Positions 51,095 through 57,732 of a stretch of 64,000 nucleotides of DNA are shown here, piece after piece. The translations under genes and the position numbers were made by a program. A model generated the notes under the pieces. That model was not told the origin of the DNA. It made no database searches and worked only from the letters and a program-made list of their open reading frames with translations. Numbering within the stretch: the stretch's first letter is position 1; the number at the start of each line of letters is the position of its first letter. Source of the stretch: Escherichia phage JLBYU24; sequence record OK272476.1; one strand, given 5' to 3'.

Positions 51095-52063
51095 TTATTT
51101 CAGAAGAGTAACCTCAGCAATTTCTTCCCAACCATTTTTGTCGGTCATAATAAAGTCAGCAAGATAAAGAGCAGTACGCAGTGAAACATTGCGTAAACGA
51201 TTAACATTGACTTTCATCCATGATAATGCTTTATAAGTTTCTTCATCAGAAAGACCACGCTTTTGCATCATGTCGGTTGAAAGAATAACATCTTCAACCC
51301 TGACCATAATTTCTTCATTAGTGTGAACACCCAAATCTAAATAAACCGAGCGGGAAACTAATGCTTGCAAATGTGGAGCAAGTTTAGTACCACGGTCTAA
51401 TTCGCGGTCAATGTCAACGTTTGTGATAAAAACAATCGTTCCTTTAAATTCAAACTCACGCTCAATGCCTTTTTCTTCTAAGTAAGAAGATGCAGTGCTC
51501 CAGCAGACTTTACGGGTCTCTCCAGTGTCCAGAGCAGCTTTCAAAAGATTAAGAATGTCCATATCAGAGAAAACATCCACATCATCAATCAAAAGGACAG
51601 AATTCTCTTCACGATTATTCCAGAGCTGTTCATAAAGACCGATACCAGAGATTTTACCGTTAATGCTTTTATATTCAATGTATCCAATATCATTTGCTTT
51701 ATTTAAAGCTTTATCTAAAGAATACGTTTTACCAATGCCTGCCGCACCAGAGATAATTAATGAACGAATGTTTCCGTTAATAATACCATTCGTCATCATT
51801 CCCATAACATTAAATCTTTTATTAATGCGGGTTTTCATATCTTCATATGATTCTTTAACTTCTTCAACTTTTACACCATCATATGAAATGTCTGATTTGT
51901 AAACCCAAACACCGCGACGCTTACCGTCAATTTCAACAAAAACTTTACCATCTCCTTGTGCATCTACCGGAGCATTATCTGGGAACCATTCGCCTAAGAG
52001 CTCAAAAGTTCCAGAGATTTCTTTACCGAAGTAGATACCCTTATTGATAGTTACAGTTTTCAT
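51095..52063 (-). CDS. P-loop NTPase with N-terminal extra domain
   Basis: 322 aa; Walker A GAAGIGKT; Walker B LLIDDVD; AAGGAGA RBS. Confidence 0.6.
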   Translation of the reverse strand: MKTVTINKGIYFGKEISGTFELLGEWFPDNAPVDAQGDGKVFVEIDGKRRGVWVYKSDISYDGVKVEEVKESYEDMKTRINKRFNVMGMMTNGIINGNIRSLIISGAAGIGKTYSLDKALNKANDIGYIEYKSINGKISGIGLYEQLWNNREENSVLLIDDVDVFSDMDILNLLKAALDTGETRKVCWSTASSYLEEKGIEREFEFKGTIVFITNVDIDRELDRGTKLAPHLQALVSRSVYLDLGVHTNEEIMVRVEDVILSTDMMQKRGLSDEETYKALSWMKVNVNRLRNVSLRTALYLADFIMTDKNGWEEIAEVTLLK

Positions 52064-52120: not shown

Positions 52121-52321
52121 TTATTTTGACATTTCTTCGATGGCACGACGATACCCGTCACGAACTTCACGAAGAGCTTCAAGGCCACACATAGGCTCGA
52201 TACCAGTAATGTGAACTTGATTAATCTGATACTCTACATCTTCTAACTGAGCGAAAACATAACGACGTTCAGCTGCACACCCAGATTTAGCTTTACCGAA
52301 ACGTTTATTCAAAGTAGTCAT
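52121..52321 (-). CDS. hypothetical protein
   Basis: 66-aa ORF downstream of promoter 52360-52389. Confidence 0.4.
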   Translation of the reverse strand: MTTLNKRFGKAKSGCAAERRYVFAQLEDVEYQINQVHITGIEPMCGLEALREVRDGYRRAIEEMSK

Positions 52322-52389: not shown

Positions 52390-52419
52390 AGTTTTGTGAA
52401 AAATTTTTGAAATAAAAAA

Positions 52420-52437
52420 GGGAGCCCGAAGGCTCCC
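52420..52437 (-). terminator. UUCG-loop hairpin 3' of nucleotidyltransferase gene
   Basis: gggagcc-cgaa-ggctccc, 7-bp GC-rich stem. Confidence 0.6.
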
Positions 52438-52439
52438 TA

Positions 52440-53453
52440 TCATTTATAATAACTTCGGTGGTTTTCAAGATAGACCTTCTCAAGGAAGTCATCCCAGAAA
52501 CTCATGTCTACTGTTTTAGGCATACCGTTCTTAGAAGCTTCAGTAGATGCTGCTTCTACTTGATCGACCACATCTTCCAAAAACTCTTGAACTGTTTTAA
52601 ATGGATGTTTACCCAACTTCACGTCGAGAATAAATGGAGCATCTTGAAGTGGATAGACTAAGTCACCAGTTTTGTAAATTTCCAATAGTTGGAGTCCACC
52701 ACGACAAGCATGACTTAGTGCTTTCCAATCAATGCCTTCATTGGCTTCGGCCTTACGAGCACGTTCACCGTATTCAGCATCTAATTTGTTCAGTGACTGC
52801 TTAAGCTCAATAAGAGAAAGCGTTGTCTGATATTTACGACCCAACACGGTGTAGAACGTTTGTGGGCCTGTTTTCTCATGATTATGGAACACCCATTCAC
52901 AGAATTCGTTTTCTGGAAGACGATGCTTAATATCTTCAACTTTAGTGCGACGCTGCTTAATAGAACCATCTTCTTGGTAATCAATCCACTGCTCAGGGAT
53001 TTGATTAACTACTTTCAATACATCACGTAATGCAGCCAAACGAGAACCTTTAACACCGTATTTAGAAGCTTGCTTGCGGACATATCCTAAATATGATTTC
53101 ATGTTAGTCGTATAAAAACGAGAACGGTTGTCTTGAATAAACTTCCACACATCAGGCAAATCAGATTTAACTACTAGTTCAGGTGGAGTGTGGAGCATAT
53201 CCAATGCTACAGTTTCACCATCTGCTGCTAATTTAAAGAAATATTTAAGACTGTATAGTTCATGGTCAATATCATCTTTAGTGTTTTTAGATGATGTGTT
53301 GTTAGTGTTTTTGCTCATATGCTCTTTAACGTTTCCGATAAGAATATCACGAGCAGGAGGAACAAAGATTTCTTTAAAATCTACATCAGATTCTGGGGTA
53401 GAAGTTCCATAAAGATGACTACCAAAATAGCTTTTCATTACTGTTTTCATCAT
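52440..53453 (-). CDS. Pol-beta-superfamily nucleotidyltransferase-like protein
   Basis: 337 aa; N-terminal YFGSHLYGTSTPESDVDF fits hG[GS]-x10-DhD; ATGA overlap with upstream gene. Confidence 0.55.
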   Translation of the reverse strand: MMKTVMKSYFGSHLYGTSTPESDVDFKEIFVPPARDILIGNVKEHMSKNTNNTSSKNTKDDIDHELYSLKYFFKLAADGETVALDMLHTPPELVVKSDLPDVWKFIQDNRSRFYTTNMKSYLGYVRKQASKYGVKGSRLAALRDVLKVVNQIPEQWIDYQEDGSIKQRRTKVEDIKHRLPENEFCEWVFHNHEKTGPQTFYTVLGRKYQTTLSLIELKQSLNKLDAEYGERARKAEANEGIDWKALSHACRGGLQLLEIYKTGDLVYPLQDAPFILDVKLGKHPFKTVQEFLEDVVDQVEAASTEASKNGMPKTVDMSFWDDFLEKVYLENHRSYYK

Positions 53454-53923
53454 TCAGCCTTATATTCAATAACAGGACATACTTTAGCTTTACGAGCTTT
53501 TAAAAATTCAACGATAATCGATTTCTTGGGTTGAATAGGCTCAAGTCCATTTTTGATTCGTTCTTCGTTTTGTATAATGAGTTCAATTTCTTTATTGAGC
53601 TTTCGGTCGTTATATTTGTCTAACAACCAGGAAGGACCAATTACCGCCGCGACTGCAATAAGAACCATTATTGATATTGTTAAAATACCTATACCAATTG
53701 AAGCCGGAACTAATGTCCATAGACTACTAAAGACAAAGAATTTAATTAAAATTTCTTGGCCAATGATTGCGGCACCTGCTAAAGTTGCAAATCCAACAAT
53801 TGAAACAGCTAATACCGGGAGAAACGTTTTCCAAAAATAAGCACATAACGTTTTTGGACGATTCCATGTGCTGTTAAATGCCGAGTAAATTTTAAAGTGC
53901 CAAGAGTTTTCATTAATAATCAT
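53450..53923 (-). CDS. integral membrane protein (about 3 TM helices)
   Basis: 157 aa; three hydrophobic segments; charged C-terminus. Confidence 0.5.
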   Translation of the reverse strand: MIINENSWHFKIYSAFNSTWNRPKTLCAYFWKTFLPVLAVSIVGFATLAGAAIIGQEILIKFFVFSSLWTLVPASIGIGILTISIMVLIAVAAVIGPSWLLDKYNDRKLNKEIELIIQNEERIKNGLEPIQPKKSIIVEFLKARKAKVCPVIEYKAE

Positions 53924-53925
53924 AA

Positions 53926-54447
53926 TTATCCTTTCATTGAAGGCGTAACGGTTGTTAAATACTTAATCATCGCTTCAGCTTCTGATTTTGATAATGAAAT
54001 TTCTTCATTGTTTTGACGAATAGAAATAAAATCCGGATGACGGTCACCACCAGCTTTTAAAACACATATATAAGTATCAGTTTCATCTTCAATATTTGAA
54101 ATGATTGAAGCAGTTCCACATGAATGCGGTTTTTGATAAATCAATACAGCTTTTCTTCCGCCATTTGACTGTTCATAAACTTTTAATACATCAAACAAAT
54201 CACTTCTTTTATCAATAGCTAAAATGTTATTTTCATCTTCAATGTTAAATCCTTCGGATACTTCATAAAGTGTTACCCATAAATCACCGATGTCAATAAC
54301 AGCATTTACTTTTCCACGGCTTTCAAGAGTATGACAAATTTTCTTGATTTCGTCATAACTCATTTTAATAATATCATCTCCTTGACTAAGAAAGATGTCA
54401 TTTTTAAATTCAACACGAATTAAACCGCTTTCACTTGAAATAAACAT
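53926..54447 (-). CDS. hypothetical protein, paralog of 54454-54999
   Basis: 173 aa; shared GFNIE and C-terminal EAxAxxxYLxxVxPxM motifs. Confidence 0.5.
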   Translation of the reverse strand: MFISSESGLIRVEFKNDIFLSQGDDIIKMSYDEIKKICHTLESRGKVNAVIDIGDLWVTLYEVSEGFNIEDENNILAIDKRSDLFDVLKVYEQSNGGRKAVLIYQKPHSCGTASIISNIEDETDTYICVLKAGGDRHPDFISIRQNNEEISLSKSEAEAMIKYLTTVTPSMKG

Positions 54448-54453
54448 ATTTCC

Positions 54454-54999
54454 TCACTTTGAAATCATAGTTGGAATAACAGAATCAAGATAAGTCTTTA
54501 GTGCAATAGCTTCGTCTTTGGTAAATGTGACAATATGCGATCGAAAATCATCAATTTGACGAATAGTTAAGACATCTCCATCTTCATAACATTTTGATAC
54601 GTTTAAAACAGTTTCATCATTCTGATTGCAAGCGTTAGTAATAATAGCATTGCAATTTTTAAACCATTTTAAACTATGTTTTCTTTCATTAGAATAATAA
54701 AAATATTTAATCTTAGTTATAAAATTATCCCAATTATTAATTGATAAGCATATTGACTCGCTTTCAATATTAAATCCTGGGCATAAAGAATAGAAATGAA
54801 TTTTATGCTCATCATTAATGCTTACAATTTTATCAGTATAAGAATTTTCAATTTGGGTTAAACGAACAATTTCGTTAGGCGTAAAATATAGCATATCGTC
54901 TTCTTGTGTCAAACGATACATATTATTTACTTTTTCTATAGCCAATTCACCAAAAAGTGAACTAACTTCTAATACTAATCGTTTCGCCTCACTCATCAT
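54454..54999 (-). CDS. hypothetical protein, paralog of 53926-54447
   Basis: 181 aa; AGGAGT RBS; first gene after promoter 55132-55161. Confidence 0.5.
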   Translation of the reverse strand: MMSEAKRLVLEVSSLFGELAIEKVNNMYRLTQEDDMLYFTPNEIVRLTQIENSYTDKIVSINDEHKIHFYSLCPGFNIESESICLSINNWDNFITKIKYFYYSNERKHSLKWFKNCNAIITNACNQNDETVLNVSKCYEDGDVLTIRQIDDFRSHIVTFTKDEAIALKTYLDSVIPTMISK

Positions 55000-55131
55000 T
55001 GTATACTCCTCTGAATCATATCAATAATGTTGTTCACCAGATTATAAGTAAACATTGGGTAATTATATTGAATCATCACATACACAACAAACAAAATTTT
55101 CATTCTCTTCTCCTTGACAGTTGACAAGATT

Positions 55132-55161
55132 ACTATACCATAACCTTGCCAACTTGTAAAC
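55132..55161 (-). promoter_or_regulatory. T4-type early promoter
   Basis: minus strand GTTTAC-N18-TATAGT. Confidence 0.5.
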
Positions 55162-55326
55162 CATTAAATGACGTTTTCAATAAAATTCTGAAGCTTTGTG
55201 TGAGCATCAACCATGATTTTCATTTCTTCCTTTGCGAAAGCCGTACCTCTTTCCCGAGCAGAATACTCATAGTCAGAAACTGCATTAGCATATTCTTCAA
55301 TTAGCTTCATTAAAAACATCTGCTTT

Positions 55327-55521
55327 TCAGTTTTCATTATTCCACCTAATCATTTCAAGATATTGAACTAATTTAGCTTTAGATTTGTCCAAATCCTTTT
55401 TAGCTGCTTCTATACCATCATATGAATATCCTTCACAATGTTCAACTGCCAATTGGTATGAATCTATTTCAATATCACGTGCTAATTTAATGATTTTTTC
55501 AAACTGTTCACGTGTTAGCAT
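55327..55521 (-). CDS. hypothetical protein
   Basis: 64-aa ORF. Confidence 0.4.
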   Translation of the reverse strand: MLTREQFEKIIKLARDIEIDSYQLAVEHCEGYSYDGIEAAKKDLDKSKAKLVQYLEMIRWNNEN

Positions 55522-55523
55522 AC

Positions 55524-55763
55524 TTAAACTCTCGTATTATGATCGATAATTTCATCAAGAAACATATCTAACGCTTCTAAAGCATTATCAACTTTAGCTT
55601 CAAGTTCATCAATACCTTTATTTGCAATGCCTGACGAAAACCAAGCAAAGTCACTAAGTTCCTCGTCTGCTTTACGAATTAAAGCTACTAATTCCTTAAT
55701 TTTATCTGCTTGTTCGATACTAATCATTATTCCACCACATATGAAAGAGAGAATATTGCACAC
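55524..55763 (-). CDS. hypothetical protein
   Basis: 79-aa ORF. Confidence 0.4.
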
Positions 55764-57546: not shown

Positions 57547-57732
57547 TTAAAGCGTATTCACATAAGCTATTAATTCATTTTCTTTCTTATCAAACCGGTC
57601 AGCAAATTCTTCTTGTTGTTCGGGAGATAGCGGGCCGTATTCATCATAAAAGGTGTTTGCTTCTGTATGCTCATCTAGAAGTTCATGGATAAGCTCAAAC
57701 AATTTATCTTTTTGTTCTTTACTTAGACTCAT
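57547..57732 (-). CDS. hypothetical protein
   Basis: 61-aa acidic ORF. Confidence 0.4.
   Translation of the reverse strand: MSLSKEQKDKLFELIHELLDEHTEANTFYDEYGPLSPEQQEEFADRFDKKENELIAYVNTL

Follow-up and report, generated by a model that had tools for sequence, protein, structure and literature searches.

In the reference annotation of bacteriophage T4, the genes tk, rI.1, rI, rI.-1, mobD.5 to mobD.2 and mobD.1 succeed one another in the direction of transcription, with nrdC.11 and nrdC.10 following later; the HNH homing endonuclease gene mobD is positioned directly after mobD.1. T4 NrdC.11 has been placed in the RlaP family (PF10127), whose bacterial member RlaP adds one to two nucleoside monophosphates to damaged RNA 3' ends (PMC12776372, a 2025 preprint), and T4 remains viable when the interval from nrdC.11 through mobD.3 is deleted (PMC9825161). 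The present analysis concerns the corresponding locus of Escherichia phage JLBYU24 (sequence record OK272476.1), of which a stretch of 64,000 nucleotides (the window) was analysed: two adjacent open reading frames (ORFs) on the minus strand, coding for proteins of 181 amino acids (aa; 54454..54999) and 173 aa (53926..54447), are followed by the genes of a 157-aa membrane protein and of the NrdC.11-type nucleotidyltransferase.

The second point of reference is a structural one. In the PC4-like class of proteins, the beta-beta-beta-beta-alpha (bbbba) unit occurs either as bbbba-linker-bbbba within a single chain (type I) or as a dimer of single bbbba chains (type II); a lone bbbba repeat is unlikely to fold alone, Pur-alpha is named as the sole protein containing both types, and the class is devoid of sequence conservation (PMC7549692).

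A tandem pair of y05I-family genes

The 181-aa and 173-aa ORFs are tandem paralogs of the MobD.1/y05I family. As pointed out in a preliminary description of this DNA, the two proteins share three motifs in the same order (given for the 181-aa and the 173-aa protein, respectively: GFNIESE and GFNIEDE; KYFYYSN and KVYEQSN; KDEAIALKTYLDSVIPTM and KSEAEAMIKYLTTVTPSM). BLASTP aligned residues 12-178 of the former to residues 3-171 of the latter with 27% identity and 52% positives (E = 1e-12). In the pairwise alignment against shuffled controls, which that description had named as its possible refutation, the Smith-Waterman score of 128 was far above the scores of 2000 shuffles (31.8 +/- 5.4, at best 65; z = 17.9); just 25-49, i.e. 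background, was reached when eight neighbouring proteins were compared with either ORF. Both domains contributed when they were compared separately (N-domain z = 12.0, C-domain z = 7.9), and the cross-domain comparisons were null (z = 0.6 and -0.3). In both proteins the domain order is N then C: PF24449 (T4_y05I_N, gathering cutoff 24.9) matched with 7e-41 and 139.4 bits (181 aa) and with 2e-33 and 115.2 bits (173 aa), PF24448 (T4_y05I_C, cutoff 27) with 1e-20 and 74.3 bits at residues 109-178 (181 aa) and with 1.5e-22 and 80.1 bits at residues 102-171 (173 aa), while PHROG 1502 covered their full length (1e-80 and 1e-66). An origin of the resemblance in chance or low complexity, for which just the low identity of 27% could be adduced, has a negligible probability in view of the z-score of 17.9, the significance of each domain alone and the shared Pfam and PHROG models at 1e-20 to 1e-80.

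The 181-aa ORF is the ortholog of T4 mobD.1 (88% identity, same position between mobD.2 and nrdC.11). T4 MobD.1 (UniProt Y05I_BPT4) also agrees with the 173-aa ORF in the two domains, their order and the length class; however, T4 has one y05I copy followed by mobD, whereas JLBYU24 possesses two copies (27% identical) followed by the membrane-protein gene. In JLBYU24 and most Tequatroviruses the 173-aa and 157-aa ORFs are found in the place of T4 mobD, and T4 is without a second y05I gene because the homing endonuclease sits at that site. The paralogy is already present in public annotations (T6/RB32), and the family is already contained in Pfam and PHROGs: in the T6 GenBank record the 173-aa ORF is labeled “similar to mobD.1; RB32ORF097c” and the membrane-protein ORF “replaces mobD”. 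Judged by sequence identity, the JLBYU24 stretch is that of a Tequatrovirus; the 4.5 kb around the pair are 95-98% identical to hundreds of Tequatrovirus (T4-like) genomes, and the 1074 bases of the pair itself show 99.8% identity with Shigella phage Phaginator.

A point of nomenclature concerns the same genes. In RefSeq, the products of mobD.1 or mobD.4 orthologs are named [quoted passage not shown] (NC_054922, NC_000866, NC_027404, NC_054931 and others). This name results from a wrong expansion of the T4 symbol mobD, which stands for mobile endonuclease D; it has been propagated from record to record and is flagged here as a mis-annotation; a molybdopterin-related domain was not found in the MobD.1 orthologs by profile search.

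According to tblastn, ~430 phage records, nearly all from Tequatrovirus, contain the 173-aa gene with at least 80% identity, and the y05I family as a whole is represented in ~740 records, all of Tevenvirinae. An exhaustive search of 1.8 billion representative proteins with hidden Markov models (HMMs) yielded 27 matches in all; those outside phages were rejected as false positives (a 3120-aa HEAT-repeat and a 1572-aa beta-helix protein with repeat-inflated scores). For P0050 and P0067, the full-length members that diverge most, neither viral nor metagenome contigs yielded a locus. A single y05I gene exists in Mosigvirus (46-49% identity to mobD.1) and in VR5-like phages (33-36%); compared with the 173-aa protein, the identity of these proteins is just 25-30%. 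In a neighbour-joining tree, the 173-aa clade branched outside all mobD.1 orthologs, the single-copy Mosigvirus and VR5-like genes included. The old tandem duplication postulated in the preliminary description agrees with this topology and with the full-length relationship of the two proteins within one family; from the position of the clade, the duplication is therefore old or fast-diverging, or the second copy came from an unsampled relative. Both paralogs are intact and under purifying selection: the ratio of nonsynonymous to synonymous substitution rates (dN/dS) among Tequatroviruses amounts to 0.11-0.22 for the 173-aa gene and 0.25-0.56 for mobD.1, compared with 0.01-0.11 for nrdC.11.

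The pair is not maintained in all relatives. Some metagenomic Tequatroviruses (L012/L013/L014, 4001-4540; protein P0021) contain a single chimeric y05I gene with a mobD.1-like N-terminal and a paralog-like C-terminal half, located upstream of the membrane-protein and RlaP genes and preceded by a Phage_tudor ORF; this structure fits a recombination between the tandem copies with collapse of the pair. In JK23, a Mosigvirus-like mobD.1 is combined with a 94%-identical 173-aa paralog. The view that such sequences are deeply diverged mobD.1 alleles of a single genus had to be corrected in part, as the group with 46-51% identity consists mostly of Mosigvirus orthologs; JK23, a Tequatrovirus, does possess that allele. 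The membrane protein of JLBYU24 shares 78% identity with the Mosigvirus versions and just 54% with those of T6, JK23 and KAW1E185, with nrdC.11 at 97% identity or more. In one VR5-like phage, a mobD insertion follows the membrane-protein gene. In T2 (L018 3001-4545, NC_054931), mobD.1 and the paralog each have two frameshifts and the membrane-protein gene has one, while nrdC.11 is intact (98%); since the independent T2 records NC_054931 and PV958097 (L023) are 100% identical over 1570 nt, this decay looks real and not like a sequencing error.

Coupling to a membrane-protein gene and layout of the block

The 157-aa ORF downstream of the pair (53450..53923, minus strand) is assigned to PHROG 944 (1.6e-50) and shows hydropathy peaks: hydrophobic stretches at residues ~30-54 and ~59-99 point to two to three transmembrane helices, followed by a charged C-terminal tail with the conserved motif F[LI]KA[RK]K[AS]KxCPxIE. 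In the family as a whole, the motifs are SWH[FY]K...LCxYFWKT in the N-terminal and FxKAxKxKxCPxIE in the C-terminal part. No Pfam, NCBIfam or PADLOC match was obtained for the 157-aa protein. As the match covers only positions 85-229 of the 235-position PHROG 944 profile, fusions of the y05I C-domain with the membrane protein were sought; none was present among 69 homologs.

In Tequatrovirus, Mosigvirus, VR5-like phages, Tegunavirus, Winklervirus and Jiaodavirus, the membrane-protein gene directly follows a y05I gene or a gene for a lone C-domain (in the last three genera as stand-alone C-domain proteins of 74 aa), and the stop codon of the first gene often overlaps the start codon of the second; this order is kept even though the membrane proteins share just ~30% identity across genera (E 1e-16 to 1e-25). 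This conserved gene pair in six genera is described here for the first time; T4 is the sole exception among the lineages with a detectable y05I or C-domain gene. The PHROG 944 family itself is distributed more widely than y05I (1149 phage records). Acinetobacter Lazarusvirus (phage DLP3, L025) has the membrane-protein and nucleotidyltransferase genes and no detectable y05I gene; in Pseudomonas Pakpunavirus (L026; non-T4-like, ~92 kb) and Aeromonas phage AS-szw (L027), neither y05I nor an NrdC.11-type nucleotidyltransferase gene is found near the membrane family gene. In a Klebsiella Jiaodavirus (L024), a 63-aa ORF (2096-2287) directly upstream of the C-domain gene gave weak matches (E ~0.02) to the HMMs of both y05I domains and may encode another single-repeat relative.

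The association with the enzyme gene is looser. The 337-aa product of nrdC.11 (52440..53453, minus strand) is a Pol-beta-type nucleotidyltransferase of the RlaP family (PF10127: 3e-11, 43.9 bits versus a cutoff of 23; PHROG 388: 7e-138) with 97% identity to T4 NrdC.11. Its gene directly follows the membrane-protein gene in Tequatrovirus, Mosigvirus and VR5-like phages; one to three other genes stand between them in Tegunavirus, Winklervirus and Jiaodavirus. The accessory genes are not co-retained with nrdC.11: they are frameshifted upstream of it in T2, T4 is without the paralog and the membrane-protein gene, and Lazarusvirus is without y05I. As T2 keeps an intact nrdC.11 despite broken paralogs and membrane-protein gene, the y05I proteins are not obligate subunits of the enzyme. 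The suggestion in the preliminary description that they could be specificity or adaptor subunits is thus half supported by the gene orders, which show a tight synteny with the membrane-protein gene and a looser one with the enzyme. Further downstream, the 322-aa nrdC.10 product (51095-52063, minus strand) showed sub-threshold matches to AAA_14 and nSTAND3 (E 6e-5 to 5e-4) and a weak C-terminal match to HTH_37.

All genes around the pair are on the minus strand, in a sequence of ~35% GC. The only sizeable upstream gap contains a Sigma-70/T4-early-type promoter-like site (55132..55160, minus strand; TTTACA, 17-nt spacer, TG-extended TATAGT; 10/12 plus TG in a consensus scan), and the 12 loci of Tequatrovirus and Mosigvirus that were examined, those of T4, T2 and T6 among them, all have the motif in the syntenic place; the site would serve as the promoter of the block. 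It is followed by mobD.2 (54996..55103, minus strand), a hydrophobic micro-ORF of 35 aa with an AAGGAG ribosome-binding site, whose stop overlaps the start of mobD.1 (ATGA); its product is 88-94% identical to the annotated MobD.2 of T4, T2 and T6 and had no family match in profile searches. A 6-nt spacer with a GAGG ribosome-binding site separates mobD.1 from the 173-aa gene, only 2 nt separate the latter from the membrane-protein gene, and the start of nrdC.11 overlaps the stop of the membrane-protein gene (ATGA). Directly 3' of nrdC.11, the scan detected an intrinsic-terminator-like hairpin (52419..52438, minus strand; 8 bp, 6 of them GC, then a T-run), which is present with identical sequence and in the same place in T4, T6, KAW1E185, JK23 and metagenomic L013 and is annotated as a terminator in KAW1E185. 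The unit from the promoter-like site to the terminator-like hairpin therefore comprises mobD.2, mobD.1, the 173-aa gene, the membrane-protein gene and nrdC.11, tightly packed or overlapping. The preliminary description had placed the pair at the head of a nucleotidyltransferase operon; the common unit with nrdC.11 stands, yet its first cistron is mobD.2, between the promoter-like site and mobD.1. In other phages, additional small ORFs are inserted ahead of the y05I pair. In sum, the paralogs are part of a co-transcribed-looking, accessory early block that T4 can lose.

Two further features of the pair were considered. A second promoter-like site inside mobD.1 (54912-54885, minus strand; TTGACA, 16-nt spacer, TG-TATATT, 11/12 match) was absent from 23/23 related loci and was rejected as a probable chance occurrence. 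The two paralog ORFs share a reading frame with only TGA GGA AAT between them (54448-54456), so that a ribosome reading through the stop would produce a 357-aa fusion; the in-frame junction also exists in T6, KAW1E185 and JK23. This arrangement is probably not meaningful, as its prior chance is 1 in 3 and it is inherited.

The early region contains a second, larger paralog set: mobD.2a (55167-55337), mobD.3 (55330-55521), mobD.4 (55527-55730) and tk.1 (57550-57732), all on the minus strand, match DUF7438 (E 3e-15 to 3e-19) and are scattered over the same region; such ORFs are present in related contigs too. The interval between nrdC.11 and nrdC.10 is a variable slot, which is occupied in JLBYU24 by a 66-aa ORF (52121-52321, minus strand; PHROG 6200), in T2 and metagenomic L012 by a 161-aa Mod-like RNA-polymerase ADP-ribosyltransferase and in JK23 by two other small ORFs, and which is empty in T4.

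Predicted fold and candidate roles

Structure prediction for the 181-aa MobD.1 with AlphaFold2 was based on a 24-sequence alignment. Residues 5-105 were modeled as two bbbba units with a predicted local distance difference test (pLDDT) value of ~90 (strands 7-13, 17-24, 27-32 and 35-39, helix 41-49; strands 57-60, 66-69, 76-79 and 84-87, helix 90-105). In the model, these units adopt the bbbba-linker-bbbba topology within one chain that characterizes a type I domain, and the y05I N-domain is accordingly predicted to be of the PC4/Pur-alpha/Whirly type. The remaining part of MobD.1 (~107-181), like the C-domain of the 173-aa model, appears as a single repeat of four to five strands followed by a helix (pLDDT 45-76 in the two models), and the paralog is composed of the same two domains.

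On these grounds, we favor a composite reading in which the y05I proteins would be dimerising accessories of the membrane protein equipped with a variable recognition domain; its probability is estimated at roughly 0.45. The C-domain as the third unit, which also occurs as the stand-alone 74-aa protein, would not be able to fold alone; it might pair with another C-domain in the manner of Pur-alpha repeat III, giving homo- or heterodimers of the paralogs, and/or dock on the membrane protein encoded next to it. Recognition of single-stranded RNA or DNA or of a protein would be the task of the N-domain, which evolves fast and reassorts freely, and the duplication would have equipped one shared membrane-linked module with two different recognition heads. 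The nucleotidyltransferase would then be a neighbour that may use the module and does not need it. The joint decay of both paralogs and the membrane-protein gene in T2, next to an intact nrdC.11, speaks in favor of such an arrangement, as do the adjacency of y05I or C-domain genes to the membrane-protein gene in six genera and the chimeric gene, which has kept its place upstream of the membrane-protein gene.

Several results weigh against it. The C-terminal part of MobD.1 (residues 107-181) was modeled with a pLDDT of only ~50, and the model of the 173-aa paralog was poor throughout (mean pLDDT 55), with the same order of elements as in MobD.1. The similarity among the three putative repeats was weak in hhalign (best pair, repeat 1 versus 3: P 0.0016, probability 16%). 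The y05I proteins had no Pur, Whirly or PC4 Pfam match at E <= 1, and the family and C-domain profiles gave chance-level matches only when compared with the PDB sequences (CsoS1D, E 0.34; ArnA, E 0.28). A Foldseek comparison of the MobD.1 model with the PDB likewise revealed nothing significant, and Pur-alpha was not listed. Both proteins carry a negative net charge (-7 and -10), and acidic residues prevail among the invariant polar positions (LTQEDD, GFNIExE), in contrast to typical nucleic-acid-binding surfaces. With respect to the membrane protein, T4 retains mobD.1 without the membrane-protein gene, and the alleles of both genes reassort independently, which argues against allele-specific contacts. 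A literature search on mobD.1, Y05I and the Pfam accessions turned up no functional or experimental study. The missing profile match to Pur, Whirly and PC4 does not exclude the fold, because the class is without sequence conservation.

The main rival reading likewise starts from the predicted fold, which resembles that of binders of single-stranded RNA and DNA, MRP1/2 included: the y05I proteins could be RNA-binding cofactors of the RlaP nucleotidyltransferase that hand the 3' end of a bound RNA, be it a damaged tRNA or another RNA, over to NrdC.11, as part of a phage RNA-repair module. MRP1/2 are RNA matchmakers that act beside terminal uridylyl transferases in trypanosome RNA editing and offer an analogy for such a role. 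In Tequatrovirus, Mosigvirus and VR5-like phages the y05I genes are adjacent to and co-oriented with the RlaP-family gene, and the activity of RlaP on damaged RNA 3' ends (PMC12776372) as well as the prediction that jumbo-phage RlaP restores nucleotides before ligation (PMC7824862) would be in line with this function. However, nrdC.11 of T2 is intact (98%) next to two frameshifted paralogs, T4 is without the second paralog, Tegunavirus, Winklervirus and Jiaodavirus have one to three unrelated genes before the nucleotidyltransferase gene and do not have the N-domain, the part presumed to bind nucleic acids, and Lazarusvirus combines membrane-protein and nucleotidyltransferase genes without a detectable y05I gene. 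Furthermore, the y05I proteins are acidic, NrdC.11 evolves ~10x more slowly at the protein level, and profile searches detected no RNA ligase (RtcB or 5'-phosphate ligase) or end-healing domain in any ORF of the block. A cofactor role is therefore considered unlikely.

If the paralogs were instead neutral leftovers of a hyperplastic region, i.e. independent or redundant copies without any joint function with each other or their neighbours, then the insertions, replacements and allele exchanges of this hotspot (mobD, Mod-like ADP-ribosyltransferase, Phage_tudor and DUF7438 ORFs), the decay in T2, the partial loss in T4 and the deletability of the block in T4 would all be expected. Yet ~430 genomes have retained the two copies in intact form, at dN/dS values of 0.11-0.56, ribosome-binding sites and tight spacing are conserved, the order y05I-then-membrane gene is kept in six genera despite a protein identity of ~30%, and the joint decay of three genes in T2 suggests a unit. 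These features make neutrality distinctly unlikely.

Quite improbable, too, is the most far-reaching form of the membrane-linked model, according to which y05I would represent the first viral and second known case of the Pur-alpha architecture, with a paralog heterodimer that is anchored to the membrane protein and feeds or regulates the RlaP nucleotidyltransferase. Within this model, it is no less doubtful that the heterodimer would form a two-headed RNA- or protein-recognition module, directed e.g. against host anticodon nucleases, whose exchanged N-domains set the specificity.

Finally, the Pfam label “y05I-like putative transcription factor” would suggest early proteins which bind single-stranded DNA or promoters and modulate the transcription of host or phage, comparable to PC4, PBF-2/Whirly, Pur-alpha and Bpur. 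The fold class does contain transcriptional regulators (PMC7549692), and the promoter context of the block is of the early type. The label was, however, most likely inherited from the fold class, and the literature search found no supporting experiment for it; the proteins are acidic, no helix-turn-helix, zinc-finger or other DNA-binding domain was found in profile searches, the consistent coupling to a membrane-protein gene would not be expected of such regulators, and the block is dispensable in T4. This assignment is hence regarded as very doubtful.

Comparison with known systems

For the greater part, the locus is ordinary and already catalogued: an accessory gene has been duplicated within a region of T4-like phages whose variability is well known. 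Its new content consists of the fold-level hypothesis and the conserved gene-pair context: the former provides a structural proposal (Pur-alpha-like, three repeats) for ~740 phage genes whose sole functional label is “putative transcription factor”, and the latter, a conserved gene pair beside an RlaP RNA 3'-end nucleotidyltransferase, points to a possible membrane-linked branch of RNA repair or host takeover.

Among the described proteins, Pur-alpha (3k44, 5fgo) is a candidate structural counterpart of the predicted fold: its repeats I and II form an intramolecular domain and its repeat III mediates an intermolecular dimer, and MobD.1 is predicted to have the same count of three repeats. In contrast, the sequence identity between MobD.1 and Pur-alpha is 4%, the third unit of MobD.1 is predicted with low confidence and, in this prediction, has five strands, and the phage proteins are acidic. 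The Whirly, MRP1-MRP2 and PC4-like proteins, the single-repeat protein Bpur of Borrelia and the PC4-like protein of phage T5 have no sequence relationship with y05I, and the Whirly, MRP and PC4-like families offer no counterpart to its genomic coupling with a membrane protein. Bpur is reportedly a transcriptional regulator of this fold class.

With respect to gene neighbourhood, the RNA-repair operons of RlaP are the nearest system, as nrdC.11 belongs to the same family PF10127: in the bacterial operons (RtcB-RlaP-RtcA) the RlaP gene is accompanied by RNA ligase genes, whereas in the JLBYU24 block it is accompanied by the y05I genes and the membrane-protein gene instead.

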